A DNA stretch of 64,000 bases. Source: Bilabrum cf. latius (Eukaryota). This document shows, piece after piece, positions 1-50,401 of this stretch. Location of the stretch: assembly GCA_965178125.1 (NCBI GenBank), contig OZ237743.1, positions 1,054,001 through 1,118,000 on the forward strand. The letters run 5' to 3'. The first letter of the stretch is position 1, and every line of letters starts with the position of its first letter. Below the pieces are notes generated by a model. That model was not told where the DNA came from, made no database searches, and saw only the letters and a program-made list of their open reading frames with translations. The translations under genes were made by a program, and so were the position numbers.

Positions 1-475
1 GTTCTGGCGGTCGTGGCTTGCGTTTGGACGATCCTAATTGCTCGAGACTGGCCTGTCGACGCATAGGACCGCACAGTGTCCAGGCCCGGCAGGACTGGGT
101 GCTGCCTTCTCCTTGACTATGCTAGCCTGTGGCGACGTTCAGGTAACGTCTACTCTCTGGTGGGCTAGGAGTATGAAGACAAGGACAACAACAGCATCAT
201 CTCCACTGGCAGCCCGCCGGCTTGTCTGGCGTGAGTGCCTTGGCTTGGGCAATTTCGAACGACAAACTGTGTCGAGGCTGTGGTGCCGTCCTAAGTAGAG
301 CCAATGAGCTATGTCGTAGTTGCTTAACTCCGGGGGCAGTCAAGTTGAAGTCGCACGTGCCACAAGGGGGTTGCATCCGAGGTGGTCAAAAAGGTCAAAC
401 TTTTTTGAAGATGAAGCGATACAATTATTGCCAGCAACTCATATTTCGTGGATTTTGAGCAGGCAACATATCATA

Positions 476-3400
476 ATGCCATCTCGTACAGGAATTGCTG
501 CATTATTGGTCACAGCTTGCGAGCCGTTTCTAGATCAGCGCTCCATTAAGGCTATCAGATGCACCTGCCGGCGATTGCAAAGTGGCACCTCTAGACGTCG
601 AACAAGCAGTGACAACGCTGTAAAAGAGACAGCACTGAACGTTAGTTCTGCATCTGGAGCATGGAAAGTTGCGTACGGTCGGGTATGTAGATCAGGTCAG
701 ACAACGTTGGTGCCTGCCAGCCCCGTGGTGAGAGCGCATTGTTGGCATTCATTAGCTGAGTCTAGACAGCAGCATAGTGCTAGTGATAACCCTTAGCATA
801 GAGATATCAGGGTTGGTCCCGAAGGATCGCTGATCAAGTTCGGTAGCTTCTCAGAGTGCAGTCCAAGCTGCCTGTCAACCTTCCCGCTTGAGGCTGCCAA
901 TATTAGCGGATCAATCGACCAATACAGTGAAGTTGCATGCGTTAGCACAGCAATCTCACTACGAGCGCTCGGAATATCACATCTACATGCCTGCACAACT
1001 GCCAAAAGTCGTGCTCTTCGACGCATTCTCCAATCTGCAAGGAGTATTCGCTGCCTGTCTCTGGGTTACGGCAGGGTTCAGTCAAATGCAACCCGAGACT
1101 TTGTAATTCCCGATAAAATTGTGTTGGAGAAGAGCGTATGGAGAGCTCGGGCGGTGCATCGGTGGGCTTCGACTCTGGCAGATGCCCAGCACTCGCTTGC
1201 AGTCCGTGCTTTAGCCACGCCGCCAGCATGCGACCGGCATTCGATTGGGACGCATTTAGTCAATGTACAAGGGTGTAAGACAGCTCTAAAAGTCGGGAAT
1301 AGCGATGAAGCTGCCGAGAGAGGAGCTTCAGGCGGTTCAGGACGCGGTAGCACTAGCTGTCCGGGCGGCGCTCACCGACCGGAGAGCAGAAAAGCCCCGA
1401 TACACAGCAAAGCATATGATGGAACGTGGTCAAGCGGTTCATCATTACGGCACATTGCGGTCCAGAAGGTACCCAGAGGCTTGTTTAGAGCACCAGCACT
1501 TGGTGCCCTCCTCGGAGCCATGCCGCAGCACATGCAGCAATGGACATGTAGTACTACTAGTAGTAGTGCAAATGCGACTGCCGATTTGATCCGTGCCAAT
1601 CCCAAGCTTTACCTTTGTTGGGATCTCCGCACACTGGTGCTACCCGCCTCGCGCACATGGAGAGACGCCCAGGCCCAGGCTCGTCTGCTGTCCTTGTGCC
1701 CTCGGTTGATCGCTCTGAGAGCAGTGAGGCTGCCGTTCAGGGCGGTGCGACTCCCATTCGACTTAGAGCAGAGAGGAGAGCTATGGTACTGGAAGAATAA
1801 CCCCGTGGCGCGCAAGGGGCGGTATAGACCGCGTAAGTGGAGAGACTCCGGATACATGAAGGGACAGGCACTTAGACAGGTCATTGAAGCTGCCTCCCGC
1901 TGGGTATGCACGGTGCTGGACAGCTGCCCAGAGCTCCGCTGCCTTAGCCTGCCAGGCATGGCACCGGAGGGCGCGGCTGGTGTGCTGCTGGGCGTGCTGA
2001 GCAGACGGGGCAGGTTTAGGCTGCGCACGATCGACTTCGGTCTGGTGTAGCCCTCATTCCAAGCGACTTGCACCGACCATCTCCGTTGGTCGGCATTACG
2101 CGCAAAGATGCCTCTACTAGATCGTCGGAATACAAGGCTGCAATACTAGTCGCAAGAATGGCGTCTAATGCAGCAATATTTCGAGCGAGGGCGGATCTCA
2201 GTGCGCGCAGAGCCGCATGATCCGCTGGTCAGGGTGAAGCTCGGCCCAACCTCGCATCCTGCCGACTTGCTATGGGTAGCAGACCGCCCAATAGCAGATT
2301 TAACCAGACCAGATACTGCAGAGGGCGTGCACGCAGCTACGCAACCAGGCCTAGATGAAGGCGCGGACGCAGCCGTTGACATTGCCGTGCACGCAGCTAC
2401 GCAACCAGGCCTAGATGAAGGCGCGGACGCAGGCGTTGACATTGCCGTGCACGCAGCTACGCAACCAGGCCTAGATGAAGCTGCGGATGGCTATACAGCC
2501 GTCACCCGTGCATCGAGTGAGGAAACAGCGTCAGGGGTCTCCAGCGAGACCCCTGACGCTGTTTCAGCCGGAGACGACAGTACATCGTGCAACAGTGGGA
2601 GACGACAGTATCATGCATCCAGGGAGTTCAGGTGCAGAAACGGATGCGGTGCATTGATGGTGGAAGCCACACAAGCAGCGAACGGCCACGCGTTGGATAC
2701 GTCACGCAGCTTAAACTAGAATCAAAGGGACCACGACAGAGTCTGCAAGCTGCGCACATTAGAGTGTCCCGCAGTGGATTGTGCGTGGGTGGGTTGCGCC
2801 ACCGAGTTCGCCAATCACGCCGAAGAGTGCCAGCGCTTGGCAGCAAGCTGCTGCAGTCAAGAATCAGCGTCGACTAGTATGGAGCGACAGAGACTAATGC
2901 ATTTTGATGGTCGCGAGTGTGTTCACGGAGTTTTGTCGGAGAATTCAGCGCCCCCATCGGTAGATCACCGATCAGATCGCCCAGTGCCGCCGGGAGAACT
3001 CAGCAAGCTTGTGTGCACGAACGGTTGCGGGGCAGTGCTTCTTGGGGGCACCAGATTGGGCACCCGTAGTGCGTTACTCACAGAGGCATACGCGCAGATC
3101 GTGCAGGCAGACCACGATGTCCTGTGTCGGATGCACTCTGTGTCTTGCCCAGCAGAGGGCTGCGCCTGGGTTGGGCCCAGGTATACGTATGCTGACCACA
3201 CCGCCAAGTGCCGCTCGTGGAACACATAGCTGCGGTGGAGCCGAAACGAAGTACATCCCGTGGATCAGATGAGAGACGACGTGAGAAGAGCAGCGGCTGC
3301 CTGGGCCTTGGAGCGACCCCTGGATGGCAGGCATGTACCTGGTACTGCCACCGTGCTATCTGCTCCTGTAGATCCCGTGCTAGAGGCCTTTGAGGATCGC

Positions 3401-4909
3401 CCTCCGCAGCATGATGCAGCTCTGCAGGTCGCTGTCGGTGGGTACTGGTGGCGATGGGAGGCCATGGTGCTGTCTTGGGACAGCGTGTCCAACTGCCAGG
3501 ACAAGGACACGCGGGTATCGCAGGCCGTGAAAGACGGCGATGAGCTGGCCGGGCTGCACCTGGGCGCCCCGTTCTGGAGGGCGCTGCCGCCATACATGCT
3601 GGAGCCCGAGACGCCGTTTAAAGTCTAGGTACTGGGGTCGTGTGACTCGGAGCTGCAGAACCAGCGAATGTCTGGGGAGGGCTAGCTGCTCGGTTCAGCT
3701 GACGGCGGTGTCGGTCGGTACCAAGCCCACGCGTCTGATCTGCCGCCAGCACCCGCCAGTGGCGCCGGAGCTGATGATGTTGACAATGAGGGGCACTGGC
3801 GTGTTTCTGATGAGGCAACTGAGGGGGAAACTTGTTGCTCTAGCTCGGAAGCCAACGGTTGTGGCGTCGCTGGTACTGAGGCCGCTTCACTCGAAGTGTT
3901 GCTCCATCCCGACGACCCCCATGTACATGGTACCAGGAGCAGCGTCACGGAGGCAGTGTACCAACTCACCAGGAGCACCGTGGAGCCACTGTCAATGCAG
4001 CACGAAGCTCATCGTGAAAGACTGCAAGATGCAGCGACAGCTGACCCTGCTGACATGCAGTGCCCTGCTCGTGCGCTGTAGAGGGTGACGCATGGTTTTA
4101 ATCTTGTCGCCATCAAGAATTGGACCGTCTGGCGAGCATTGTACTCGCGTACTCGCAGTGATTATGCATCATACTTACGCGCTATCCGACTCGGCAGGGC
4201 TCATCGGAACCCAGAAGAGCACCGAGACCCTGGTGTTCTAGAAGGGCAAATCAGGAGTCTGGAAGACCAAATTGCCATCGCTGATCGCAGTCTGAGGAGA
4301 CTTTATCGCGGGCTTCGCGCGCTTCAAATGAACGCTGGTGCTGGTGCTGGTGCTGGTGCTGGTGCTGGTGCTGGTGCTGGTGCTGGTGCTGGTGCTGGTG
4401 CTGGTGGAGCTGCTGGTGCTGGTGCTGGTGCTGGTGCTGGTGCTGGTGCTGGTGCTGGTGCTGGTGCTGGTGCTGGTGCTGGTGCTGGTGCTGGTGCTGG
4501 TGCTGGTGCTGGTGCTGGTGCTGGTGCTGGTGCTGGTGCTGGTGCTGGTGCTGGTGCTGGTGCTGGTGCTGGTGCTGGTGCTGGTGCTGGTGCTGGTGCT
4601 GGTGCTGGTGCTGGTGCTGGTACAATAGCAGGCGTAAGTGAAGGTACAGATGCAATAGCAGGAGCAGGAGCAGGAGCAGGAGCAATAGCTGGAGCAAGAG
4701 TAGGGGCACCTGTATGTACTCGAGACGGCAATGCTGCCCGAGCCAGCACCACAGCGTAGAGAGATTCATGTGATGAATCGAGCGTCACGCTATTTCAGGC
4801 GCTATGTTTGTTGGTGCTCGTTTGGCTGCTGGTGCACTACTACTGGTCGCAGCAAGGGAGTTAGAGGGCCGACCAAGGGCACGGCAACCATAGAAAATGG
4901 TCGTTTTGA
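476..4909 (+). CDS. ~1477-aa protein: N-terminal F-box-like segment, two TRAF/SIAH-like zinc-finger units, (Gly-Ala)n tract, C-terminal hydrophobic helix (TAG read as Gln)
   Basis: ORF-track pieces 320-796, 1121-2050, 2168-2719, 2774-3229, 3260-3628, 3896-4081 and 4085-4759 share one frame. They are separated only by 10 TAGs (794, 2048, 2147, 2717, 3227, 3626, 3683, 4079, 4757, 4862), and the first TGA is at 4907. Repeated motif CxNGCG...DHDxxC...CPAxxCAWVG...HxxxC. Hydrophobic stretch LFQALCLLVLVWLLVHYYW near the end. Domain names are motif-level inference. Confidence 0.65.
2327..2480 (+). repeat. 60-bp coding tandem repeat, ~2.6 copies (VHAATQPGLDEGADAxVDIA)
   Basis: gtgcacgcagctacgcaaccaggcctagatgaag recurs at 2327, 2387 and 2447. 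Confidence 0.9.
4334..4621 (+). repeat. (GCTGGT)n hexanucleotide microsatellite encoding poly(Ala-Gly)
   Basis: Directly visible, with one interruption near 4406-4411. Confidence 0.95.
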
Positions 4910-8157: not shown

Positions 8158-9441
8158 TCACATGATCGGGAACGACGCATCCATCTGGATCCCGCACTGA
8201 CCCGGGGGTCCGTACTGAGGCCCCCGACCCAGCAAAATGTACCCCTGATCGCCCCACGTGGTGCCCCAAGAGGTCTTAACCTTCCAGTAGTCTTCGCCGT
8301 TGAGGGTGCCGTAGCCGACGAGCAGCATGCCGGTGTCGAGCTAGGTGCCGCATGGGGCCGTCATGACGCCGCTGTGGTAGTTCTGGAAGTTGAGCGACTG
8401 GGCTGACACCCCAATCGACACAGGCTGCTGTGCCACGGCCGCCATGAGGTCTTGCTCGGAGTATCCCGCTACAGGGTGGTACCCCTAGATCTGGGCGCGG
8501 TTTAGGCAGGGAGGCGCCATACCATGGCACTGGCAGGGCCCCGACTGGGCTGTGTACGGGTAGTTGGACTCGAACGTGAGGCCACCCGCCCACTGGGTGT
8601 ACCTGAACGCTGCGTTGATATCACCGCTCACGCACCCGTTGTTGCCGAAGGAAGCAGAGCAGTCCACCAGCTGCTGCACGGACAGGTCGATGGGCGGGAC
8701 ACCATGGTAGATTGCCCGCGCGCTCTCGATGGCCCCTGCTGCCGAGAAGGCCCAGTCGGACCCGCACTGGCCCTGGTCCTTGACCGAGGTGACGGCACCT
8801 GCGAGCACGTGTTTGCATGGATAACATAATGTCACGGTACTATGCTTTATGACGCGCAATGACTCCCAAGCAGTACGTGCATGCATTCAAGCATCATTCT
8901 TGCAACCCGGCCACAGCAGCCAAGCATCGCGCCCACAAGCAACTGCGCGGGCTACCCGACCACCACTCGGGTGACGGGCCCGAGAACGGAGTGCTCCAGG
9001 GCCAGCATCCAAACGATGGCATGCTAGCAAGCGCAAGCGATACATACACCATACTTGTGTCTCACCTGCTGCGGTCCAATCCACCGATGGCGGAAGGCTG
9101 CCCTGCCCCTGCGTCCGACGGTCGTGGCCGGTCTCGGCTGCAGTCGCGTTGGGAACCGTGCCTCGGAAGCCTCCGGTGTAGATGGCGGCGAACTCCTCGT
9201 TCGTCAGATCGGAGAACGCATTCAGGCCCATGGTCCACGACAGGCCCTTGGCGTTGTGCTCCTCGACGGCCTCGGCGTTGGCCGAGAAGACCTCGAGGCG
9301 GCGTTGGGCCTCCTCGCCCTCGTAGGTCTTGCCGTGCTGGGCGGCCCATTGCGTGAACTGGGCCATGCGGTCCTTGGTGCTTGCAGCCATGGCAGTGGAA
9401 GCTGCGATGGCTGCGATGATGGCGGTGCAGGCGGTCTTCAT
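8158..9441 (-). CDS. Papain-family (C1A, cathepsin-L-like) pseudoprotease copy A, exons 9441-9066 and 8798-8158, ~338 aa
   Basis: Signal peptide, I29-type propeptide ([14 protein letters not shown]), [39 protein letters not shown]. In-frame TAG at 8485 and 8341. Stop is TGA. Confidence 0.9.
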
Positions 9442-10331: not shown

Positions 10332-11652
10332 TTAGTCAAGAGGCGGGGCAGGCCACACAGTCGGGAATGATGGAACCATCTGGATCCCGCACTGCCCAGC
10401 ACCCCCGTACTGAGGCCCCCGGCCCAGCAAAATGTACCCCTGTTCGCCCCACGTGGTGCCCATAGAGGTCTTAACCTTCCAGTAGTCCTCTCCGTTGAGG
10501 GTGCCGTAGCCGACCAGCAGCATGCCAGTGTCAAGCTAGGTGCCGCATGCTGTGGTCAATACGCCGCTGTGGTAGTAATGGAAGTTGTACCCTCCGGCAT
10601 CCACCGCAATCGACACAGGCTGCTGTGCCACGGCCGCCATGAGGTCTTGCTCGGAGTATGCCGCTACAGTCTGGTATTCCTTCAGATGCACAAGCTAGGG
10701 ACAAATAGGCAACTTGGCTGAGAACTGGCAAGGCCCATCCTGGGCGGTGTACGGGTAGCAGGAAGACTGCAGCATGCCATTTGCCATGACGTAGTGAAAC
10801 GCACCTAGCATTGTCCCACCCGCGCATCCGTGGGTGCCGGAGGAAGCAGAGCAGTCCACCAGCTGCTGCACGGACAGGTCGATGGGCGGGACACCATGGT
10901 AGATTGCCCGCGCGCTCTCGATGGCCCCTGCTGCCGAGAAGGCCCAGTCGGACCCGCACTGGCCCTAGTCCTTGACCGAGGTGACGGCACCTGCGAGCAC
11001 GTGTTTGCATGGATAATGGCATGGATAATGGCTTGGATAATGTCACGGTACTATGCTTTATGACGCGCAATGACTCCCAAGCAGTACGTGCATGTAATCA
11101 AGCACCGTTCTTGCAACCCGGCCACAGCAGCCAAGCATCGCGCCCACAAGCAACTGCGCGGGCTACCCGACCACCACTCGGGTGACGGGCCCGAGAACGG
11201 AGTGCTCCAGGACCAGCATTCAAACGATGGCATGCTAGCAAGCGCAAGCAATACACATGCCATAATCGTGTCTCACCTGCTGCGGTCCAATCCACCGATG
11301 GCGGCAGGCTGCCCTGCCCCTGCGTCCGACGGACACTACCGGTCTCGGTCGCAGTCGCGTTGGGAACCGTGCCTCGGAAGCCTCCGGTGTAGATGGCGGC
11401 GAACTCCTCGTTCGTCAGATCGGAGAACGCATTCAGGCCCATGGTCCACGACAGGCCCTTGGCGTTGTGCTCCTCGACGGCCTCGGCGTTGGCCGAGAAG
11501 ACCTCGAGGCGGCGTTGGGCCTCCTCGCCCTCGTAGGTCTTGCCGTGCTGGGCGGCCCATTGCGTGAACTGGGCCATGCGGTCCTTGGTGCTTGCAGCCA
11601 TGGCAGTGGAAGCTGCGATAGCCGCGATGATGGCGGTGCAGGCGGTCTTCAT
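10332..11652 (-). CDS. Papain-family pseudoprotease copy B, exons 11652-11277 and 10990-10332, ~344 aa
   Basis: Near-identical exon 1 and intron to copy A. VKD(TAG)[10 protein letters not shown]. In-frame TAG at 10965, 10695 and 10536. Stop is TAA. Confidence 0.88.
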
Positions 11653-11884
11653 GCTTGTCGTTGGCGATGTCCTGTTGGGCTGCGGTGCGGTAGCGACTGC
11701 GAGAAATGAGGCTTCCAATGAGCGACTGTGGAAGGGGCCTGGCGCAATCTGCATTGGTTTGGAATAGCACGCCGCAACCTAAAATCAAAGGAATCTCAAG
11801 GGGGGCCAGCCCTGGCAGTGGCGAAATTCCATTTGTCGGCGAATGGTCGCACTCCCGCGTCAAGCAGTCTCTAACATGCCCGAC

Positions 11885-13277
11885 TCAAATGAACGGATAC
11901 GACGCATCCATCTGGATCCCGCACTGCCCAGCACCCCCGTACTGAGGCCCCCGGCCCAGCAAAATGTACCCCTGTTCGCCCCACGTGGTGCCCATAGAGG
12001 TCTTAACCTTCCAGTAGTCTTCTCCGTTGAGGGTGCCGTAGCCGACGAGCAGCATGCCAGTGTCGAGGTGGGTGCCGCATGGGGCAGTCATGACGCCGCT
12101 GTGGTAGTTCTGGAAGTTGAGCGATTGGGCAGAGACCGCCACGGAGATTGGCTGCCTGGCCACGGCTGCCATGAGGTCCTGCTCAGAGTATGCCGCTACC
12201 CGGTGGTACCCCGAGATTGGCACCCGCACCAGGCAGGGAGGCGCCATACCATTGCACCGGCAGGTGCCATCCTTGGCGGTGTAAGGGTAGTCCACGTCGT
12301 GGGTGAGGCCGAAGACCTGCTGGGCGTATTGGAAGCTCATGATCATGGTGCCTCCCTCGCAACCGTTGTTCGTGTAGTTCGTGTTCGGTCCAGAGCAGTC
12401 AATGATCTGCTGCACGGACAGGGTGATTACCGGCCCACCGTTTACGATGAAGTCAAGGCCCTCCATGGCACCTGCCGCAGAGAACGCGTAGTCGGACCCG
12501 CACTGGCCCTGGTCCTAGACCGGGGTGACGGCACCTGTGACAAAAGGAATACAATTCATTAATCACGATTAATACAATCATTGGTGCATGTCATGGCGGC
12601 TAGTTTGCTGCACATGTGTTCGGCCGGGTTGGCCAAGACGCCAAGCACTTCAATCTGGGCCATATGACAAAAATATATTACTTAAGCGGGTGGACACCAG
12701 ACGTATCAAACATCATTATCTTTAGGATCAAAAGCACAAAAAGCGATCAATATGCCCTTAAGGCGGCCAAACTCTGTAGGTGGCAATACAACTTCGGACA
12801 CGAAATCGGCCGGTCCGAGCACGGAGTGCTCCAGGGCCAGCATTGGAATCTTTGGAGTGCTAGCAAGCGCAAGCAATACATACGCCATATTCGTGTCTCA
12901 CCTGCTGCGGTCCAATCTACCGATGGCGGCAGGCTGCCCTGCCCCTGCGTCCGACGGACACTGCCGGTCTCGGCCGCAGTCGCGTTGGGAACCGTGCCTC
13001 GGAAGCCTCCGGTGTAGATGGCGGTGAACTCCTCGTTCGTCAGATCCGAGAAGGCATTCAGGCCCATGGTCCACGACAGACCCTTGGCGTTGTGCTCCTC
13101 GACGGCCTCGGCGTTGGCCGAGAAGACCTCGAGGCGGCGTTGGGCCTCCTCGCCCTCGTAGGTCTTGCCGTGCTGGGCGGCCCATTGCGTGAACTGGGCC
13201 ATGCGGTCCTTGGTGCTTGCAGCCATGGCAGTGAAAGCTGCGATGGCTGCGATGATGGCGGTGCAGGCGGTCTTCAT
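11885..13277 (-). CDS. Papain-family pseudoprotease copy C, exons 13277-12902 and 12534-11885, ~341 aa
   Basis: Same exon structure as A and B. VTPV(TAG)[12 protein letters not shown] with TAG at 12515. Stop is TGA. Confidence 0.88.
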
Positions 13278-15482: not shown

Positions 15483-16646
15483 TCACCCTTCCGAATCGGA
15501 TGCTGCGGACGCGTCGCTCGCTACCCGGCTGGTAGAACGGCTATAGCGCACATCACCATAGTCTCCATCGCCGCTAGCATCCAGGCTTACCGGCGGCGCT
15601 CCACCGGCAGTACTGCCTTCAGCTCCTCCTTGTCTTTCTTCAGTTCCGCTTGCATCCTTGGGGCGCGCAACATGCAGCAGCTCAAGCAAGGAGTCCTCGG
15701 GCGATTGCTATCCCGTGATAGAGGCGGACGGCAGCATGAGCCCCTCGGCTTGGTCAGAATCTGGCTGTCGGTCCTCGGAGTGGAGCTACATGAGCCCCTC
15801 GGCTTGGTCAGAATCTGGCTGTCGGTCCTCGGAGTGGAGCTACATGAGCCCCTCGGCTTGGTCAGAATCTGGCTGTCGGTCCTCGGAGTGGAGCTATGGC
15901 GGGGATTGCGGAGCGGTTGGCACTGGCATTGAGACTCGGTGGACTTCAACACGTTGCCCTGCGGTGCCAGCACTGCCATCAGCGCCATTAGCGGCAGCAC
16001 ATGCACCAGCGCCAGTGCCATCAGCGCCAGCGCCACCAATATCATCAGCGCCAGCTCCAGCTCCAACACCACCAATAGTATTAGTGCCAGTCCCAGCGGG
16101 TGGTCCACGCTCAGGCATCGTGACGCTCCGCAGGCTCGTAGCTCTCGGTCCCTCGGAACAGGTCGGCATTGCGCCTCTAACGCTGGACGAAGAGGCGATC
16201 GCTGCCCCACTCGGTGGCCCGATAGGCTGCTCCGCCGCGACTTTAGAACCTAATGGCGTGGAGGTACTGGCTGGGACGCCGGTGTGGCCTGCAGTTGCGG
16301 TGCTTGGTGCTGAGCTGGACGGGACTTCCGATGCGGTGTTGCCAGCCGGAGCGCCGCTTCCAGCGTGACAGCTGGATTGCTCCACTTTCAGACGATCGCC
16401 AGGCTTGCTATTTATCTTGGGTTCAAGCACTGCCTCGAGTGCCTTTTGCAGACTTCCGACTGCGCGTCGGGCCGCCCGAATGGATCTTCGCACTTGTCGT
16501 AGGTCCGATCGTTGCACCTCGTCTGTGGACCTATCTGCCGCGTCTAGGTTACTCATCAGCAATTTAGACTGGTCCAAAATGCTGAGACGTGCCTCAACGG
16601 CTGCCGTCTCGGCAACCTCTGGGTCTGCTGCTGGTGGCCGAGCCAT
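15483..16646 (-). CDS. Hypothetical low-complexity protein, ~387 aa, with an 18-aa repeat
   Basis: ORFs 15894-16646 and 15483-15689 join in frame across four TAGs. Stop is TGA. Confidence 0.55.
15735..15896. repeat. 54-bp tandem repeat x3 (on the minus strand QLHSEDRQPDSDQAEGLM, first Q encoded by TAG)
   Basis: catgagcccctcggcttggtcagaatctggctgtcggtcctcggagtggagcta occurs three times. Confidence 0.93.
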
Positions 16647-23372: not shown

Positions 23373-26300
23373 TCACTCGTCAGTGTTGAGGCTCAGGGCC
23401 ACGCCCTGCAGCACCCAGTGGCTCGCATGCTCCTCCGTGGCGAGATCCGCTTCGAACACCAGGCCGACGCCCATCGCGTTCCTTCTCGCCTGCGTCACGT
23501 ACACCGGCGTGCGGAAGGTCCCCACGAGCTTCAGCTTGGCTGCCTCAATGGGAGTCACCTGCAGCACGGGCAGGGGCACCACGAGCACCTTGGGGTCCTG
23601 TCGCTTGAGCTGCATGGCCTTCCTGTCCCAGCCCGCACCCTCCAGGTACAGGCCCCGCACGAAGCACCCGTCCTCCGGCACCTCCACGATCTCTGACGGA
23701 TCGTCGTGCGCCGTCACCCGCGTGAACAGAGTGGATTTGTCCAGGGGCCAGCTCTTCCTCCTGCACGTGGCCTGCACCAGCGCAGTGAGATACGACTCGG
23801 GGATGTGGAGGCCACTGAGCCAGATGACCGGCGGATCGCCCTCGTCCCTCCAGGCCTCGTACTGGTTGCCCCTCTGCACGAAGTGGCTCATCCATGACCC
23901 CAGCGGTTTCTGTGTCATGGGAGCCAGCGCACGCCAGCTGTTAGGTAACAGTCCGTCGAACAGCGCATCGCCGATCTGCTCCAGGCGGTCGCTCATGCCG
24001 ATCTCGCCCTTGAGAGCGCGCTGCAAGTCCTCCAAGCTCTGCGCCATGGCACCGCATAGACCGTTCCAGCGCTCCAGCTCCTGCAGCAGCACGACCTCCG
24101 TGGGGGTGGGCAGGCCGTGGTCCGACATGATCCTGCGGCGAAGCAGCGCCACGTCTGTCAGGTCGGGCACCTTTTCCAGGATGCCCACAAGGACCCGCTC
24201 TACGTGCTCCTCCCTCGACGTGCCCTGCGCTGCCGCGGCCGTCCTCGGCTGCAGCGAGGCCAGGTTCCTCCAGAGCCCCTTGGAGGCGATCGTGAGGTAG
24301 CCGATCTCGGCGTTGGGGTGCAGCCCGAACACGGCGGGGCTGTTGGAGAGGGGCAGGCCCTCCACCTTGTCACGGAACTCCTCCAGCTCCCCCGGTGCGG
24401 GCAGATCGTAGTCGAAGCCAACTGTCGAGAAGAAGAACCTGGCGTCCTCAGAGAACAAAAAGTCCCCCATGTACTCGTCCAGGTACGTCTTGAGCACACG
24501 CCGGTCGAAGTCGTCGCTGACCCTGCCGCCGTACATGGCGTCCCCAACGAGGTACTTGAGCGAGCCCCACGGGATGATCTCGTCCCCGTTCTGGTCCGCC
24601 TTTGTGAGGTACAGCTCCAGGAGCTGGCGGGACACCTTGAAATCGGACTCGTTGAAGTCGTAGGCCACGTTCCAGCCGATCTTGCCGTACTTGCGTCTCT
24701 CCAGCACCACTGCGTGCAGGAAGCACAGCACGTACACGAGCGGCCTGAACGCCTCGTGCGGGCACACGTCGAACTCGGAAGGCTGCATCTTGTGGAGGAG
24801 TGCCCTCATGTTGAGCTTGAGGCCGTCCGGAGGCTCCGTCACCACCTTGAGCGACCGCTGGAGGATGCCCAGGGGGAACCGGTCTGTGGGCTCCGTGGTG
24901 AGCCACAGCCTAAAGTCCTCGTGCGGGTTCTTGGCCTCTTGCAAGATCTTCTCGAGGTTGCTGAGCCAGGACAGCAGCAAGTGGCAGTTCTGCAGCAGCA
25001 CCCAGTAGCCCCTCTGCATGCCCAGCTCCAGCATCTCTTCCGCCTTTTCCGCCTGTCCCTGGCCCAGGGCCAGGAACCTGAGCTTTGTGGGCGGCGTGAA
25101 GCCCTTGGCCTGTCCCAGCTGCTGGATGTCCGACTGGGGGTCGGCGCCCGGGCTGAGGATGAACACGACCGGAGACACCGGTGAGGACTGCTGGTAGATC
25201 CTCTCGTAGTCCGCCACGGGCGGCTGCACGTACCTCTCGTCCATGCGGTGGATCACGAACTGACGCACCACGTCATATACCCTGTCCACGCGGAAGCAGC
25301 GTATGATAAGGAGCCTCTGGAAGCGGGAGAGCTTGGCCTCGAATCCGCACGGGACGTCGGATGCCTCCGGGTTTGGCTTGTCGTACCACTCTTTCCACAC
25401 GGCCGCGCTCTCCGCCTTGGTGATGCTCTCGACGATCCCGTCGAACGGGTTGGGCTTGTCGCCGTCATCCTCCAGCAGCCCCTCCAGTCGGATGAGGTCC
25501 TTCCAGCCCTGGGCCGAGATCCACCCGTGGGGGCACTGCTCCTCCGGCTCGTCCAAGGAGGTGTCCCCCTTGAGGAAGAAATCGAGCTCCCTCCTGTCCA
25601 GCTCGCCCTCGCCGTCCATGATCATGGTCGTCACCTGGAAGGAGAACATGAGCTTGTGCCGCTCGAAAATACCGAGGCACGTGTAGTCGTACATCTGCTT
25701 GGTCATCTCGTCGATCATGTTCTCGAGTCGCTTAGCCAGCTCGTGGCTCGGCCTCGCGTGCTTGAGCGACCGCGTAAATACGCCGAGGAAGGACCCGAGC
25801 GAGATCTCGTACATGCGCATGATGTTGCTGAGACCTGCCATGGCAAAGAAGAGGATGGAGCCTCGCTTGGCCGCGGGTTGGTATGCCTCGCGAGCCTTGT
25901 TGATGCTGGCCCTCGTCTTGGCTGACTCGACCAGCTTGGCACCGATCAGGACCGAGCTGGACTTGGCCTCCTCGAGCGTCTCGATCAGGGCCTGGTTCTC
26001 GAGGATGTCGCCCTGCGCCGTGCTCAGCGTCTTGAGGAGCGTGTCTTCCAGCTGCTCCAGCTGCTGGGTCATGCTGCTCATCTCCGAGACGAGCTCCTTG
26101 AACTGCTTCTCCAGCTCCTCCCTCTCGTGCCCGACCACAACGTTGAGGAGCTGGTTCTCCAGCCCCTGCATGGTCACGCTGTAGTTCACGATGGAGGTCT
26201 TGCCCATGATCTCGGGCGAGTAGTGCGGGTTGCCCAGCTTGCTGGTGAGGTACATTCTGAACTCGTCCGACCACGCGATGGACTTGTCGCCCAGCTTGAT

Positions 26301-29300
26301 CATGAGCTGCGAGCCCTCGTAGTGGGTCCTCCTCTCCAGGATGGGGTCGATCCTGGGGTCCAGCTCCTCGCCCACCGACTCGAAGAGGAACGGCTGCCCG
26401 TACTGCACGGCCAGCTCCAGGTGGCGCATGAAGTCGTCGTCCAGCAGCGTGGCGCGCTTCAACCGGTTGTCGGCCTCCCTGTTCTTGATCCACTCGATGG
26501 CCTGCTGCTGCGGATCCACGCACAGTGGGAAGCGCGAGGCCTGGGTCGTGAGGATGCCGTTCATGATGGAGTGGTCGTCCGCCGGCAAGCCCTCCCCCAC
26601 CCACCTCTGCACCGTGGCCTCGCTCGCCATGAACCGGATGAGGTCGTAGGGCTGCGTGAGTGGAAGCGCCTTGTCCTTGATGTCCTCCAGCCAGTCCTCC
26701 TTGATCATCTGCTGGCGGTACTGGTACGTGAAGGGGCCGAGGTAGGAAAGAAAAGACGCAGCCACGATGCAGTCGCCCACGAGCCGCTCCTTCTGGCCGT
26801 TAATGCTCTTGACGTCCTCCCCCCAACGCTTCCTCTCCGAGCTAAGCCCGGTGATGAGCTTCGAGGCGGCGTCGAGTTTCCGGGCCATGGTGGCGGCCTC
26901 GTCCTGGAGCTGCTGCAGCTCAGTCCTGCCCTCATTCAGCTTGATGTTGAGCTCTGCAATCTCGGCCTGCAGCTTCTCCAGCCTCTTGGCGGTGTCCCGG
27001 AGCTCCCTCTCGCTCTGCTTGGACTTGCGCTGCATCTCCTGCACCCGCTGCATGAGGGGCTCTACTTTCTTTGCCACCTGGTAGTACTCGATCATGGCCT
27101 GGACCCACTTGAATAGGGCAGCTGCGGCCACCGATGCGCCGTCGAGGATCTCCTGGGTGAGGCCCTGGGAGCGGATGTAGGAGGAGGCCTTGTTGATCAT
27201 ACCTGCAGTCAGCCTCGTCTTGTCGTAGTTCTGGAGGCTCTTGAGGAAGTTGGACTGCTGCATCATGATCTTGCACGCGGACCAATCGACCGACTTGCCC
27301 TCCGTGCCGGTGGGCTTGAAGGCGTGCACGCAGTACATGCAAAATTGCACCTTTTGCGGGGGCGTCTTGAGAGCCCTCACCTCGTTCACCTTGTCGGCTG
27401 TCAGCACCTGAAGGGCCCTGTCGGCGGCGGCGAGAGCGGGCTCGGCCTCGCGCAGGCTTGCCTCCGCCTCCGCCGACTCCTTGTTGATCACGATCCTGTC
27501 CTTATCAAGCTGCTCCTTCTTCTGCTGCGCGTCTGCCTCGTCCTTGTTGGCCTCCTGCTGCCTGGCATCCACCCTCTCCAGCATCTCGCCCACCTCTTTG
27601 GCCTTGGCGTCCACGATGACCTGCCTCTCCTTGAGTACGGTGCTGAGCTGGTCCACCTTTTGCTGGGCGTCGAGCAGCTTGTCAAGGCCGCTGGTCAGTC
27701 GCTGTGCCCTCGTGTCCAGGTCTCTTCGCTTGTCGCCCAGCAGTTTGCGGTAGTTGGAGATGAAATCGAGGTAGTTCTTCGGCGTCACGTAGTTGTGCCG
27801 CCTGAGCTCGGCCTCGAACCGCCTGGACGCAGTCACGACCGATTCGTGCACGTGCACCATGTGGCCGATCACGCTGGGCCTGTGCTCCTCCGGGAGCGTC
27901 TCGTCCTTCAGGAAATGGCTGGCCACCTTCTCTAGGGCATCCGCAGGCCACGGGAAGAACCAGTCGATCACGCACGACGACACGAGCCCGGGGAAGTTCC
28001 TGCAGCGCCGGCGGAGCGTGTCGCCCGAAGGCGACATGGCCAGCACGATGTGCAGGTTGTTGCGGCACTTGGACACGAAGTACGCCCAGCAGTTGTCTGC
28101 CGTGTCCTCGATCCCCGCGGCCTTCACCTCCGACCGCACCTGGTTGATCATCACGTCCTTCTCGTCCTTGTCGTAGAGGGCAGGGACCATGCCCGTCGAC
28201 AGCATGTTGTTGATCAGCTCGAGGAAGCCCTCCTCGGCCACGTCAGCGTCCGTGAAGAGGAACACGACGGGTTTGACCACCAGCATCTTGTACAGCTCCT
28301 TCAGATCCTCCCTGAAGTCCTTCTCCGTGTAGTTCCTGGACATGGTGATGGTGAACAGGTCGTAGCCGGCCGTGTACGTGGCCAGTCGGGTGAGGGACTG
28401 CTTGCCGCTGCCACCGACACCCACCAGCAGCGCGTTGCCGCGACGCATCCGCAGCACCCGCAGGATCCTCGTGAGGTGCTCCAGCGCCTGCTAAAAGAGA
28501 ACGAGGGACATCTCCTTGACCTCCTCGTTGTACAGCTGCAGCACCTGATCCAGGATGCCACGCACGCTGTCGAAGGAACCCAGGTCGCGGTAGAGCCTCA
28601 GGTCCTCCTTCTCCTCGGACAAGCGACCGAAGGCCTGGCCAAAGTCGCCGTACAGCATGGGCATCCTCAGGGCGTGATCCGAGGCCTCTCCGAAGCCCCT
28701 GCGGATGAGTGCCTCAAGCTCCTTGGCAACGATGGCGTGATCCTCGTCGCTTACCAGACGGTCCGCGAAGATCCTGCAGCACTCGTTTCTCCACAGTCGC
28801 GCCACGTCTGCCTCTGTCTGGACCGTGTCGGGGGTGATGGTGGTCAGCCCCTCGTAGATGCGGCCCAGGTCCCGCAGGTTGAAGATGTAGTGGAACTTGG
28901 CGGGGGTGGGCGGGAGCTTCTCCACCAGCGTGTTGTACAGCGACAGGGTAAGCCCCGTGACCTTGCCTGCAGCGGCCCTGGCCGGGTCGGTGTACCCTCC
29001 GTCCTCGTAGAACCTCTCGATGATGGACCCGTAGATCTTCCTGAGCACGTCCTCGGTGGGAGGCGTCAGGTTGAACACGGAGAACATGCTCATGAAGCGA
29101 GGATCCACGCTGTTGCGGCCTCCCCCAGGAGGACCCATGGCCCCGACGTACCTCATGTCCTTGAAGGTCTTGAGCTCCAGGTCCTTCTGCCTGTCGTACA
29201 TCTGGCCGCGACCCACCAGGAAGTGCAGGAGGGCGATGGGCTGCTGCGTGCCGTACGTGTCTACCCTGGGCATGTTGAGGTCGTCCACGAAGACCAGAAG

Positions 29301-32300
29301 CTTCTGCCCGATCTTGGGGCCGTAGGTCTTGCCTGAGCGCCGGTCCACCACGCTCTCGATGTTCTGCTGGACATCCCATGACGTCGTCCTGCTGCTAAAG
29401 TTGATCACGAGCGGCTTGAACTTCTCGGGGTCCAGCGACTGCATGTAGTTCTGAATCGTGACCGTCTTGGCGGTGCCCGACTCGCCCACGAACAGGGTGG
29501 GCTTGCTCACCCTCTGCATCTGAGTCAGGATCCACGTGTACAGAACCGAGTCGGTGGTGGGCACCAGCACCCGATGGATGTCGAAGGGCTGCGGGGGCAC
29601 GTAATCGGGCACCTTGGATTTCCACGCCACCCACTTCTGGTCCTCGGGCGAGTACAGGTGCACGTAGGGGTCCTCCGGGATGCCCAGCTCAACCATCTTG
29701 CCGAGGAACTCGGCGAACCGAGCTCGCTGGGGACCGGTCGCGGCCGCGCCGCAGGACCACACGAGCGCGTTCACAAAGAGGCCCTCCAGCGTGTCGAACT
29801 CGGTCACCTCCTCCTCGTACGGAATGAGCGCGTCCAGCATCGAGCACAGCTGCTTGACCATGGACAGGTCGGTCATGGGCACGACCAGCTCCACCGGCTC
29901 CTCCATGTCGCCCGTGCCGTCGCCCAGATCGCCCTCCAGCACGTACGCCACCAGCTTGTCAACGTACTTGTCGAACAGCTGCATCAGGTTCTCGGCCTCT
30001 GTGGGTCTCGGTCCCGCGCCCGCCGCCTTCTTCTTGCCCCCCTCGGCCCCTCCGGCGACGCCACCCTCCGGCTTGGGATGGAGGCCCCGGCGCCTGAGCT
30101 CGGCCCACCGCCAGAAGTAGGGCCGGTACCTCAGGTTCTTGGGATCAACGTACGTCATGCCGCAGCGACTGATGGTGGCGGGACTGGCGTACTGCAGGTC
30201 GAACACCTCCACGAGGATCTTGCAGTGGTCCTCCAGTCGAGTTCTCGTGCCGTTGGGCAGCGTGAGCAGCTTGTTGTCGTCCATCACAGAGTTCATGTCT
30301 TCCACCCACACTGCGTCGACGTCGCCGTCGAAAACGATCCAGCGCATCTCGTTCTCCTTGCCCGGGGGCAGGGGCTGGTTGCACTCCCGGAACAGCTTGG
30401 AGAGAATGCCGTTCTGCCACTCTCGGGTGGCCGGGTCCATCACGCCGTAGAGCTCCTTGACCGTCTGCGCCTTGGGGTTGAGCGTGAAAACCTTCACGTT
30501 TCGGTTGAAGGCGGGCTTGCTGGCCCTGGCCAGGGCGTTGATGACGACCGTCTTGCCGCCTCCCGTGGGACCGACCACCATGGTGGTGTGCCTGACCAGC
30601 ATGACTTCGTACAGCTGGATGACCTTGTCGACCTGAAGCTGAAAGACGTCCTCGAGGTCATGGTGCATGACGTCCTCCTCGAGCACGGCCTCTGTCGCGT
30701 TCTTGAGCTCTGGATATGCCACGCGGGGGCAGTCCAGCCCGGGGAACAAGTCGTCGATGAGGCCCTTGAAGAGAGGCACGTCCTCGTACACGAACTTGGG
30801 GAGGTTGGAGTCCCGCAGCGAGCGCATGAGCACCAGTTCCTCCGTCATGTCTGCGTACTCCCTCTTGAGTCCTCCCGCCATCACCAGCACCGACTTGAGC
30901 GCCCTGAGCCCGAAATCGTAGTGGTACTGCTTGGACAGCTGCTCCCTAGCCAGCGAGTACAGAGTGGTCATCTTCTTGGCCAGCACCCTCGCCTCCTCGA
31001 AGCCCTCGGAGAACAGCATGATCTCGCAGATCTGCAGCAGGTCGGGCACGATCATGGTCACGGGACGGAACAGGGCCTTGAGGTTGTCGGGCAGCTCCGT
31101 GCGGCCGGCGTACCCGGGGTTCATGGTGATGAACACGCCCACGCTGGGGTTGATCTTGATCTCGACACCGAGGCCGATGTCGGCGGTCGGTCTGCCGTAC
31201 AGGAGCGCGTTCTGGATGGATTTGAGCTGCGCAGAGACCACCGACAGCACCTCCACGTTGATCCGGTTGAACTCGTCGAAGCAGCCCCAGGCCCCCACCT
31301 GCGCCAGACCCGAGAAGGTGGCGCCCAGTGCCTTGTAATCGAGACCCTCGCCGCAATTCTGCACGTAGCAGGGCAGGGCGAGGTTCTTGGCCAGATCCTT
31401 CACCGTCTCCGTCTTGCCGGTCCCCGCAGGACCCGCAGGGGAACCACCGAGCTTGAATGTGAGCGCCTGGGTCAGCGTCATGTAGCACCGGTCCGTGAGT
31501 GGCGTGATCACCAGCCTGCCGGACAGGCCCATGTAGTCGTACCCGTAGCCGAACTCGCCAGTGCACTGCCGGATGAGGATGTCGTCGACGTCCTTGTCCC
31601 AGTAGAACCTCAGCTGCGACTCCCAGGCGAACTCTCTGGCGTCTAGGATGGAGTCGCGGACGAACGAGTCCACGATGTCGCGCGCGTGGACGTCGACGAT
31701 GAGCAGCGTGTTGCACTTCTTGCGTATCATCTTGGGGATGTCCCCTCTCACCAGGCCCACGAGGTCGATGAGCTGCTGCGTGAGCTTCGAGGCGAAGCGC
31801 TTCATGGCGTACTTGTCGCCTTGCGCCACCCGCCTGAACGTGTCTTCCGTCTCCCACGTCCACCAGATCTGGGACCCGACCATGCACACCATGCCTATCT
31901 GTTCCTTGACCCACTCGATCCGCTCCCTCCTGGCGTAGTAGAACACGCCCTCCTTGGCGATCTTGTGGAGCGAGTACTTCATGTCCTGGTCAGTCTGGGT
32001 CATCCACTGCTCCACGGGGCCCTCCACGGAGGTGTTCCTCCTGAAATCGAAGGACTCGCCCTCGCTGGAGGACATGCCCTGCACCAGCTTCGCGTCGGAG
32101 GAAAACGCGAGCTTCTTGACGTTGTTGTAGAGCTGCATCAGGTACTGCTCGATCCCGCGGGGATCTGAGGAGCCCAGCACCGCCAGCAGCTCGTCGTCCG
32201 AGATGAAGAAGAACCGAGGGAAGGCGTTCCTCTTCGAGTCCAGGTACTCGCTGAGGCTCTTCTGGCATGCGTCCAACATCTCGCCCATGTCGACAAGCTC

Positions 32301-35300
32301 GTCCCTGCGGTCCGCCGTGCCGGCGCACTCGAGGATAGCGGGGGTCTTGACGACCTGCTGCATGATGCTCTTGAACTGCTTATCGATGCCGGCGAATCGC
32401 TTGGCCTCCTGCGGCAGCTGCATCTTGATGTCCTCGTTCCCGATGAAGATGCCCTCCAGGTACCTCCACTTCTCCTGCACGTTGTACCACACGTCGAGGG
32501 TCTCGCCCACGATGCTGAGGGAGTCACTCCACTGCTTCACCTGGCCCGCGAACGTGGTGACAAAGCGAGAGCCTTGGATGGTCTGCAGCTGCAACGTGTG
32601 GTCCTCGAGCTCGACCTTGATGTCGTCCGCCGGCAGCAGAAGGTGCGCCCTAAACACCCCGTTCTTGGAGTACTCACCCACGGCCAGCTGGGTGGACCTC
32701 CACTTCCTAGAGATCGCGTCGATGTCCTTCTCGATCTTGAGCTCGTTCATGGCCTCCGTGACGATGTCGTCGATCGTGTCCTCGAAGCGGCTCAGGTTCA
32801 TCTCGAAGATGCCTTGCAGGGTGAACGTCTTGGGGTTCATGCTGAACTCTACGCCAGTGAGCTCCATGAGCTTCTTCCAGTGCCTCTCTTTCATGGCTTC
32901 GTTCTTGAGCTTGCTGATGAGCGGCAGCGAAGCACCGAAGCCCTCGATCTCCCCGCGCACGCGAGCGTACAGCGGCATCTCCTTGAGCTCGGCGGGCTGC
33001 TTCCTCGCCCTAGACTGCAGCTGCTGGGAGCCCTGCTCGAGCGCGTTGGTGTCCAGGGCAGACCACAGCATGTTGCTGTTCGTCTCCGCGAACGTCTTCT
33101 GGTCCTAGTATAGCCCGTACAGCTTCTCCACTTTGCCCAGGTCCTCTTTGACCAGTCCCAGCTCGGGGTATCGGGTCACGTCCATCCCAAAGAGCCTCTA
33201 CGCGTCGCTGATCTCCGCCTCTCGCGCGTTCATTGCGGCCAGCTCCTCCCTGGCCTTGGGGAGCATCTCCAGGCCCTCGTCCAGGGTGACCCCCTCCTCG
33301 GCGGCGGGGCCCGTGGCCTGGTATCGCTCGAGATACGCGGCGGCCTCCTTCTGAAACTCCTCCGCCTCTGCCTGCGTGGTGCTCGCAAACCTTTGCTTGA
33401 GCGCGTTCAGCCTCGCGTCCTTGGTCAGCGCCCAGTTGACCACGTCCTTCCACTCCTTCAGCAGTTCAGAGGCGACCTCTGCCTCTTCCGCGTCCACATG
33501 GATCATCTTCTCGTACTTGCTGAGCGTGCGGAACCGCTCCACCACGTCGGCGATGGCGAGCTCGGTGTCCATCCGCATGAGCTTCACCTCGCGCACCGTG
33601 GTGAGGACCGTCTTGAGCTCCGCCAGGTTCTGCGGCGAGCTGTCGAGGATGGCCATGAGCTGGTCCCAGTGCTCCCGCATGCCGTGCATGCGAGTGGTCG
33701 CGGTGTCGGTGAGCACCCTCCCGTACTCCTTGACGAGCCAGCGAGCCTGCCTTTCGTTCTCCTTGGCGACAGGGGTGCAGTCCACGCGGATGAATCCGAC
33801 GTCCTTGACAGCGGGATGCTTGCGGGCCTGCTCGGCAAGGGCCGTGAAGGACGCCATCTTGGCGTCAAAGTAGGACACGGGCAGCTGCCTCTCCGCCAAA
33901 GAGTTCATCTGCGACGGCTTGCGCTCCTTCCACAGGCCCCTCTCCTCGCCGAACGACTCCCAGTCCGCCACGAACCGCTTCACGTCCTGGATCATGCCAA
34001 CCACCGCCGGATCCATGGCCACCATTGCGCCCACCACCTCCTGGTTGCTGACCATGTCCTGGTAGTACGAAAAGTCGGGCGCGTCGCTGCCTTCCATCAC
34101 GTCGGGGAGGGCAGGGATGCAGGTGCCGTCCGTCCACCGGATAAAGTTGCTCGCCGCGCGGCACAGGAACTCCACCGTCCTGGACAGGTATCTCGCGATG
34201 TAACCCGGCTCAGGGGACATGACGAGGTGGGGCAGGTTGTGGGTCACGTTGACGAGGACAAGGGGGCGGCGCCGCTCCAGCCTCGTGCCGTCGGCCCCGG
34301 CCACCTTGTCCAGCACGTCGATGTTGAGGAGTCCCTGGAATGTCACGATGGAAGCCACGGTCATGCGCACGATTGCGTTGTAGATGCGCCGCTCCCAGTA
34401 CCTGTAGTACTCCTGCAGCAGGGGGGCTGCCCTCGTCTTCCTGCGGTCGCACAGCGCGGCCTCGATCTGCTCCAGGCTCGCGGGAATGCTGCGGAAGCGC
34501 TCCTGCAGGTCCTCCAGCCTAACTCTGCCCTTCTTCTCCAGGAGTTCGTAGAGCTCGGACACCTCCATGGGGTGCAGTTCCGCCGTGTCTTCCTCGCGGA
34601 AGAGCAGCGTGGTGGCGATTGCCTGCACGTGCTGCTCCACCTGATCGTGGGACTTGCGCACCGCCCCCAGCTGGTTGTGGAAGGCCCGGATGGAGGTGGT
34701 GACCTGCTCGATGAATGCGCTGATGTGGAGCGAGTTCCAGTTGAGGGGAGAGAACCCCGGTCGAACCTTCGCTCGGAGCTTGGCCAGGTCATTCTGCATC
34801 AGCGTGGCCTCGACCGGCTTGAGCTGCCTCAGGATGCCGTGGTACTCTGCGAGCATTCGCTGCAGGCGAGACACCTTGCCGAGGAACTCGTGCTCCTGCA
34901 GCGTCACGTTGAGCGCCGCTTCCGGCACCTCGAAGCCGAGCCGGTCAAGGAGCTTCGTCTCGCGGATGAGGGCGTAGAGCGCCGGGCTGAAGTTGACGTG
35001 GTAGGGCGGGATGGCCATCCGCGTGGCGGGTTCGTCCACCGCGCCGTCAATGACCTTGCCGCCGAAGGTGGCGGCAGCAGCCGCGGCCGCAGCCACGTAC
35101 AAAGGCTGGTCCTGCCCATGCAGGCCCTCCTGCCCACTGCCCGGCTTCAGGATGTCCTTGGGCGCGAGGGGCTTGTCGTGCAGGCTGGGGCCCAGCACGT
35201 GCTGCGTGAGGAAGTCGCTGGCAAGCTGCTCCACCCTCTCGGACCAGCCTGAATAGAGGTCACGGATGTACGTGTCGATGGACCTGGCGTAGTTCAGGTA

Positions 35301-42150: not shown

Positions 42151-43248
42151 TTAAAACCGGTCTTTTCTCTTCCGACCCGAGTACTTGGAGTCCCTCTTGA
42201 CCTTCTTTCCCTTACCCTTGGCCTTGTCCTTTAGGTGCATGATCACATCCCTCCTCGTCACTGGTAGCTCCTTGCGCTGCCACTTGGTGCCCTTCTTCTT
42301 CCGGTACACTGGTTTGCTGCCCCCGCTGGGACGGTGGATCACCCTGACGCCAGCACCCACGGCGGGGCCGGTCGAGGAGGAGGAGGAGGCGTCCGCCCAT
42401 GCCGCCGCAGACGAGCTGCTGCCCCCACCCGCACCGCCCTTGGCAGCCCGCCCCAGCTCGCCCGCACCCTCCCCGATCCCCACCCCCATGGCCTCGTCAT
42501 CATCTTCATCTTCATCTTCATCCTCTCCATCCTCCATGCCTGCCACACCCGCGCCACCACCCGCGCCGGCACCCCTTTTCTGCTTGCCCTTCCTCCTCGT
42601 GATCCGCGCCGCTGTCCCCGGTGTGCCCGCGGAAATCACGAGGTAGTACTTCTTCGCCTTCGTGGAGTTGGGGTAGTCCACCACAAGACCCCCGCTGAAA
42701 CCGCATCGCATCGCGGTGGTGGTCAGCATCTCGAGCTGCTCCTCGTCCTTCGGGTAGAGCTGGAGGGCGGCCCGCCCGCCGCGGCGGAGGGCACCGTAGA
42801 GCGAATGAAAGAAGCGAGTAATTCGCTTCATCGGAGTGTGTCGCTTTTGCGTTGCAAAACACAACCACTGCACGGCGGACACGCTGATCACGCCGTCGAA
42901 CGTGCCAGGCCGGAAGCCGAAACCCTGCCCCATGTCGCAGAGGATCAGGTCGCCGGATGCCCCTCTCGCCTTCGCGATGCCAAGCATGTCCTTTGCGATA
43001 TCAAAACCAACCCATGCATGACCAGCTGCCGTAAGTGCGGCCCCACTGAGGCCCGAACCAACGCCAATGTCAAGAATAAACGCTTTCTTGCTCGGTGGCA
43101 TAGCGAGGAGCTCGATGCATCGTTCTGCCATCTGTGTCTAGACGGTAACCATTCGGCTGCTGCTCGTGTACTTCTCTGCCTCTGTTGAGGAATAAAAAAC
43201 ATCGGCCGGTGCAACCAGCTCCGGCCTCTGGCTGACATGAGTTGCCAT
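42151..43248 (-). CDS. BUD23: 18S rRNA guanine-N7 methyltransferase BUD23/WBSCR22, ~365 aa
   Basis: RPELVAPADVFYSSTEAEKYTSSSRMVTV(TAG)TQMAERCIELL, ILDIGVGSGLSG, GGLVVDYPNSTKAKKYYL, and C-terminal DSKYSGRKRKDRF followed by TAA. TAG at 43138. Confidence 0.95.
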
Positions 43249-50220: not shown

Positions 50221-50401
50221 ATCTTGTTGTGCGTGAAGGTTCCGGGGAAGTGCTGTTGATGCCAGATCGACCCAAGTCTACGTGCCACAGTGCCAGCCTG
50301 GACAAGCAAACCGGAAGAAGCCGTCGAACAAGAACGGGGAATCAAAACGCCAGAGTGCAAGGAGCAACGACAATAAGCTGCAGTGCTAGTCGCGACATTT
50401 A

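Follow-up and report, generated by a model that had tools for sequence, protein, structure and literature searches.

The available text of PMC11687900 describes the assignment of UAG alone to glutamine (NCBI translation table 15) for one fornicate and three ciliates, the species being Iotanema spirale, Hartmannula sinica, Trochilia petrani and Protocruzia tuzeti. The window analysed here, a stretch of DNA of 64 kb in total, resembles these organisms in carrying UAG at conserved glutamine positions, in keeping UAA and UGA as stops and in using UAG as a minor glutamine codon. In the same text a tRNA-Gln(CUA) is predicted for H. sinica and T. petrani and was not found, and likewise none is present in this 64-kb window. 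The two differ from the window in usage: UAG makes up 18.5-31.8% of their glutamine codons and UAA is their preferred stop, whereas here UAG accounts for ~11% of glutamine codons and TGA is the main stop (16/19 frames). Other reassignments of UAG alone given by PMC11687900 lead to leucine (rhizarian exLh, TARA phyllopharyngean MAGs) or serine (Scotinosphaera), and the ciliate PL0344 reads UAG as Glu and UAA as Lys. All of these share with the window the uncoupling of UAA from UAG, but the amino acid here is Gln.

Outside ciliates, a screen of MMETSP data is cited in PMC5304391 as having found no non-canonical code. The literature search found no code change in a stramenopile nucleus; subscription papers, supplements and an unpublished 2025 data-set description could hold one. 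The available text of PMC11412368, PMC13768787, PMC12152300, PMC12153298, PMC11008856, PMC6972860 and PMC6879139 mentions none for stramenopile nuclei, and that of PMC6723347 gives mitochondrial code 4 only and no stramenopile nuclear change. In the genome paper of Cafeteria roenbergensis, the closest named relative of the organism studied here, the available text names a non-standard code for the mitochondrion only (PMC6972860). The code proposed below is of a known, rare type, and it is probably the first of its kind in stramenopile nuclei. Since the organism belongs to a different supergroup branch (Stramenopiles, Bicosoecida-like), its origin would be independent of the known table 15 cases.

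The placement comes from a dynein gene in the window, whose best named match is Cafeteria roenbergensis (Bicosoecida) at 65% identity. In dynein trees built from 63 and 27 of 120 homologues, which represent a single gene and one named bicosoecid, the window is sister to Cafeteria plus one further database protein, P0121 (FastTree support 0.914; SH-aLRT 100 on 3,112 columns). Window and Cafeteria lie inside a clade that has full support and excludes oomycetes and ochrophytes. The organism is thus placed by these trees as a single-celled, bicosoecid-like stramenopile, sister to the flagellate Cafeteria and distinct from C. roenbergensis. GC content is 55-65% in the window and ~70% in C. roenbergensis. 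The database entry for the C. roenbergensis dynein is a full-length protein of 4,850 aa, and the two organisms were compared at the protein level. No Rfam match, 18S rRNA included, was found within the 64-kb window. The nuclear code of this organism is read here, with a probability of about 0.91, as of the table 15 type, with UAG as Gln and UAA and UGA as stops.

The codon from which this reading started lies in one of three papain-like genes that stand in tandem on the minus strand, each with two exons and one GT-AG intron. Copy A (8158-9441, 338 aa) consists of exon 1 (9066-9441), an intron (8799-9065) and exon 2 (8158-8798), ends in TGA and contains in-frame TAGs at 8485-8487 and 8341-8343. 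Copy B (10332-11652, 344 aa; exon 1 11277-11652, intron 10991-11276, exon 2 10332-10990) ends in TAA and contains three, at 10965-10967, 10695-10697 and 10536-10538. Copy C (11885-13277, 341 aa; exon 1 12902-13277, intron 12535-12901, exon 2 11885-12534) ends in TGA and has a single TAG at 12515-12517, in a column that is Lys in 119/119 homologues. The Pfam domain PF00112 covers the entire exon 2 with E-values from 7e-60 to 9e-58 over the copies (copy B: 9e-58). In the PDB the best matches are to actinidin, EP-B2 and triticain, and most of the homologues carry a precomputed match to PF08246, the I29 inhibitor propeptide.

The copies agree with papain family C1A in the PF00112 domain and in keeping the Gln19 position, but differ in the catalytic triad: each of the three, its frame intact, has Asp for Cys25, Thr for His159 and Thr for Asn175, while homologues have C in 118/120, H in 119/120 and N in 120/120. 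Every copy thus has the papain domain of an active C1A cysteine peptidase, and none has its catalytic residues. The three are best read as secreted or lysosomal C1A non-peptidase homologues, the localisation being suggested by a hydrophobic N-terminus judged by eye. The literature search returned nothing on this dead-triad papain family, and the ESM Atlas returned generic papain clusters only. A database protein (P0242) is 86% identical to copy C, has the His-to-Thr change in common with it and keeps Asn175; since it carries that change, the dead papain family is older than this genome. The identity among the copies is mosaic, which suggests gene conversion. Eighteen viral papain loci on giant-virus contigs (L059-L076, many named GVMAG) share 50-57% identity with copy A and are of the active type (His and Asn intact in 18/18, Cys motif matched in 16/18). 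They contain no internal stops, have TAG as the end in 3 cases and use the standard code. An exchange of genes between viruses and this lineage is possible.

The codon itself, CTA on the plus strand at 10965-10967 and hence TAG on the minus strand, is codon 134 of copy B and occupies the papain Gln19 (oxyanion-hole) position, a column that is Q in 118/120 homologues. Copies A and C have CAG there. The 21-mer around the codon occurs three times in the window (8764-8784, 10956-10976 and 12500-12520; mean by chance 0.01 in 100 shuffles). An earlier note had pointed to TAG in copy B against CAG in copy A (8773-8775) at the oxyanion-hole Gln amid identical sequence, and this was confirmed: a single base differs within 49 identical bases upstream and 126 downstream. 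A contig from a DNA run (X3) covers 10841-11211 with no differences; this run may be the source of the window, so it is not independent.

The interpretation given in the earlier note is supported. Copy B does stay in frame to its end, but only if two further TAGs are read through, and its TAA lies 7 codons past the ends of A and C. The suggested alignment of the three copies pairs TAG with CAG in this column, but the other four of the five papain columns with TAG in a copy face AAG/AAG, AAC/GTG, AAG/TCG and CAC. Scored alone against homologue profiles, the six papain TAGs do not pick out Gln (N -2.2, Q -3.4, S -3.4). That CAG and TAG behave as synonymous is shown by other genes, but the site itself is weak as an internal control. 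TAG is present in all three copies (two in A, three in B, one in C), so copy A is no TAG-free control, and with the catalytic triad gone from all of them a constraint on the oxyanion-hole Gln is not to be assumed. Among the copies, dN/dS is 0.47-0.65 in exon 2 and 0.45-0.59 overall (crude Nei-Gojobori estimates, confounded by apparent gene conversion), and it does not decide whether copy B is functional. If TAG is Gln, the C-to-T change in the first position of this copy B codon is silent, comparable to CTG/TTG for leucine, and the TAG is very probably one instance of a genome-wide reassignment of UAG to Gln.

Across the window, the number of stop-free frames of at least 500 codons is 8 under the standard code, 21 when TAG is sense and again 8 when TAA is sense. 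A set of 19 frames, picked by length, Pfam match or codon bias and cut at TAA or TGA by construction, contains 79 TAG, 529 CAG and 136 CAA codons and neither an internal TAA nor an internal TGA. TAG is present in 17/19 frames. Besides the genes described individually, the long frames counted, between 311 and 61466 on either strand, are frame 311-4909, a band-7 gene, frame 14083, frame 15483, a sulfatase, frame 19503, FkbM, TPMT, two ankyrin paralogues, TauE and a kinase. One gene is an axonemal dynein heavy chain of the I1-alpha/DNAH10 type (23373-37844, minus strand). Reading its TAGs at 33198-33200, 33105-33107 and 28491-28493 as sense fuses three adjacent frames into one protein of 4,823 aa with all Pfam dynein domains. 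Gene by gene, TAG/(TAG+CAG) follows TTG/(TTG+CTG) (rho 0.59, p 0.025, 14/19 frames).

Two other readings of the frames were tried and rejected. Tiny introns around the TAGs fail because no length difference was seen against copy A, homologues or a related metagenome locus (L001, see below). TGA as sense opens 31 long frames, none of which is needed for a Pfam gene, and these are read as GC-rich shadow frames; the off-frames of the dynein hold 122 and 38 TGA.

Several frames have features of their own. Frame 311-4909 (plus strand, 1,532 aa, no Pfam match, 11 TAGs) combines zinc-finger-like repeats rich in Cys and His with a long run of Ala-Gly dipeptides and a hydrophobic segment at the C-terminus. 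In the low-complexity frame 15483-16646 (minus strand) a unit of 17 codons occurs three times, each starting with TAG. The ankyrin-repeat paralogues (43533-48272, minus strand, and 50282-55129, plus strand; ~1,600 aa each) are divergently oriented, flank a TesB gene and share near-identical blocks amid diverged regions.

Under the standard code, copy B would be a pseudogene in which a nonsense mutation turned C into T, and the TAGs elsewhere would come from errors, introns or further pseudogenes. Decay is plausible for tandem duplicates that have lost the triad, and the exon-2 dN/dS given above would fit it. The same account would make pseudogenes of the dynein, the ribosome-biogenesis enzyme BUD23 and 17/19 frames, with TAG as the one kind of break and no TAA, TGA or frameshift among them. 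In two species the TAGs take the place of Gln with no insertion or deletion, and spliced contigs of copy A carry TAG. This account is extremely improbable, and UAG is better read as a sense codon.

The amino acid is indicated by comparison with outside homologues, which covered 13/79 TAGs. The tabulation of codons opposite TAG that the earlier note had suggested was made on the window, on columns of homologues and on L001. A conserved gene at 38381-41065 (plus strand, stop TGA), whose homologues carry precomputed PF27230/PF27231 matches, has TAGs at 38492-38494 and 39359-39361 in columns that are Q in 92/92 and 119/120 of the best 120 of 631 homologues. The BUD23/WBSCR22 18S rRNA m7G methyltransferase (42151-43248, minus strand, stop TAA) has its TAG at 43138-43140, and this column is Q in 118/118 covering homologues among the best 150 listed. 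In a TesB-like acyl-CoA thioesterase (48508-50220, plus strand) the TAG at 49843-49845 is the Q of the conserved QEG motif, which is Q in the 4/4 PDB alignments shown (7 matches); a second TAG lies in the unconserved tail. Another TAG column in the window is Q in 118/119. Over the 12 window TAG columns with at least 30 aligned residues, Q scores +8.7 and the next residue -16.2. As a control, the same test was applied to random sets of 12 columns for 10 other codons, each of which came out with its standard meaning in 491-500 of 500 draws.

Not all columns agree: UAG stands at conserved Gln positions in many genes, and there are counter-columns in the dynein, ankyrin and papain genes. The three dynein columns are E77/Q35 of 117, variable, and E84/Q11/D11 of 120. 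Between the ankyrin paralogues CAG is opposite 1/17 aligned TAG positions, most of which are poorly aligned, and a TAG within a 71%-identical stretch faces TCA. Pairing of paralogues therefore yields little as a test of the code, with 1/5 papain and 1/17 ankyrin positions facing CAG. If UAG were sense but meant Glu or Lys, or were ambiguous between residues, the two mostly Glu columns of the dynein (77/117 and 84/120) and the Lys column of copy C (119/119) would be explained. Ordinary CAG codons of the same dynein also face columns with a Glu majority (23/204) or a Lys majority (17/204), eight columns in two species are 98-100% Gln, with TesB in addition, and without the papain columns the score is +12.1 for Q against -5.1 for E. 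A meaning other than Gln is therefore very improbable.

Further evidence for Gln comes from a second species. A metagenome locus (L001) matches gene 38381 over 502 codons with 95% protein and 78% nucleotide identity, and it has the same dynein neighbour as the window, head-to-head. L001 has CAG at both window TAGs of this gene and TAG at four window CAGs, so that CAG and TAG are paired reciprocally in 6/6 TAG-bearing columns. The four columns with TAG in L001 are Q in 120/120, 120/120, 118/120 and 119/120 of the best 120 of 631 homologues. Window and L001 use different codons at ~40-50% of the conserved two-fold positions (Lys, Glu, Tyr, His, Asp), so L001 is a distinct species or a deep lineage. 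Judged by sequence, the exchange of CAG and TAG between the two is the synonymous behaviour that the earlier note had proposed.

Among at least 58 metagenome loci listed, TAG at an aligned Gln was found only in L001. The TAGs of two others (L012, L045) lie within an insertion that resembles an intron and at a C-terminal position where the alignment is poor. A gene 38381 tree was built from 108 sequences chosen among 120 proteins and 58 loci; it groups the window with L001 (1.0), and this pair is sister (0.99) to three full-length database proteins. A close homologue labelled Symbiodinium (P0002) groups with this lineage, which suggests contamination of that record. A further locus (L056), with the same contig-name prefix as L001, is a 39%-identical paralogue of gene 38381 and has two in-frame TAGs and no TAA or TGA over ~430 codons. 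Some sources mislabel homologues of gene 38381, which is head-to-head with the I1-alpha dynein in window and L001 alike, as WD repeat protein 35.

UAA is kept as a stop and is absent internally, and UGA is kept as a stop with no internal TGA in the 19 frames. The frames end in TGA (16) or TAA (3). The TAA of BUD23 directly follows a C-terminal motif with which human and yeast BUD23 also end, and which lies in the last 20 residues of 53/150 representatives. One ankyrin gene (gene A) and papain copy B end in TAA within 7 codons of the ends of their paralogues. The dynein and papain copies A and C end in TGA at the family end, and of 15 dynein homologues printed ~13 complete ones end where the window's dynein does.

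A ciliate-type code (table 6), with TAA and TAG both Gln and TGA the sole stop, would account for the TGA ends of 16/19 frames, and TAA is in any case rare in GC-rich DNA. UAA does not behave as Gln in the window. No internal TAA was observed in the 19 frames, compared with ~20 expected under a symmetric box, of which at most 3 could hide as ends; the ratio TAA:CAA is 0:136 against 34:84 for TTA:CTA (Fisher p 2e-13). L001 likewise has no TAA among its 502 aligned codons, and the TAA ends of BUD23, exactly at the family C-terminus, and of ankyrin gene A and copy B, close to paralogue ends, fit a stop. Table 6 is the least probable of all the alternatives considered.

A subtler alternative is a context-dependent code, in which UAG would be Gln internally and terminate at some ends, as in Condylostoma or Blastocrithidia, or in which eRF1 would compete at UAG. 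The most conserved genes, which have high GC3, contain few TAGs (3 of 218 CAG+TAG codons in the dynein), and overall TAG is slightly under-used compared with TTG (13% vs 18%, p 0.012). The last TAG of TesB and that of frame 311-4909 sit in unconserved tails and could be the true ends. As the frames were cut at TAA or TGA by construction, the absence of TAG ends is independent evidence only where homology fixes the end. In the seven genes whose ends are fixed by homology or a paralogue (dynein, BUD23, papain A, B and C, two ankyrin genes) 7/7 ends are TGA or TAA and none is TAG, in what is a small sample. TAG is also spread evenly along the frames (19/13/15/18/14 by fifths) and not clearly depleted in the last 50 codons, where 2 TAG stand beside 34 CAR and ~4 TAG were expected. 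Context dependence is improbable, less so than the other alternatives, and UAG as plain Gln with UAA and UGA as the stops is preferred.

Assembled contigs were compared in 4/8 listed runs. Those of three runs (X5, X6, X7; two studies) are joined across the 267-nt intron of copy A with GT-AG ends that match the gene model, and an X5 contig is joined across the 367-nt GT-AG intron of copy C. The joints at GT-AG introns suggest that these contigs come from mRNA, an RNA status that is a guess backed by the splice joints. They contain no other letters over the TAGs at 8485-8487 (X5, X6, X7), 8341-8343 (X6) and 12515-12517 (X5). Editing of UAG to CAG from U to C, with the code itself standard, would produce the same Gln alignments; since TAG persists in the spliced contigs of copies A and C, such editing is unlikely in the extreme, with the qualification that contigs drop rare variants and that 10965-10967 lies outside their cover. 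UAG is thus unedited in the mRNA of copies A and C as represented by contigs.

Among the contig pieces listed for X5, X6 and X7, copy B has no intron joint and none over 10965-10967; missing cover proves nothing. X7 has two 151-base pieces in copy B at depth 2. That copy B in particular is silent is rather doubtful. Contigs of these runs with joints at 12503 and differences over 11333-12377 also indicate at least one additional spliced paralogue outside the window. By eye, this paralogue has AAG at the Lys position of the copy C TAG, CAG at Gln19 and a one-codon insertion before the CGS motif.

A mechanism can be proposed by analogy. According to the available text of PMC5304391, CUA is the sole anticodon that would read UAG and leave UAA alone, and it is one change away from that of tRNA-Gln(CUG). 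As in Iotanema and ciliates, a duplicated tRNA-Gln(CUG) may have mutated to anticodon CUA and would read UAG and not UAA, and glutaminyl-tRNA synthetase would charge this tRNA-Gln(CUA). eRF1 would have lost or weakened its recognition of UAG, for example at the GTS loop; the Iotanema eRF1 carries T32G, and its recognition of UAG was probably lost (PMC5304391, available text). Scans for tRNAs and ncRNAs found neither within the 64-kb window, in which no eRF1 gene lies either, and both the tRNA-Gln(CUA) and the altered eRF1 are postulated from the analogy. The change would be younger than the divergence from Cafeteria and older than that from L001.

On balance this is likely to be the first nuclear code change in Stramenopiles: in at least two bicosoecid species, sister to Cafeteria, UAG alone would have passed independently to Gln in a GC-rich genome with UGA as the main stop. 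It is rare for a nuclear code to treat UAG and UAA differently, and a stramenopile case adds a major branch of eukaryotes. Codon-capture ideas are tied to AT-rich genomes, and as this genome is GC-rich the case puts them to the test. Calling genes by the standard code truncates most of them (17/19 frames contain TAG), so the lineage is probably under-represented in protein databases. Viruses of the lineage would have to use a compatible code. CroV, a giant virus, has Cafeteria as its host (PMC11412368, available text), and it may be speculated that such flagellates could host giant viruses in which TAG is Gln. The system is unusually tractable: it includes at least two species, the sister Cafeteria is a sequenced laboratory model whose annotation shows no change of the nuclear code, and both DNA and spliced-RNA data are public. 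eRF1, tRNA-Gln and glutaminyl-tRNA synthetase can be compared across a single transition, which tests why UAA and UAG are normally coupled.
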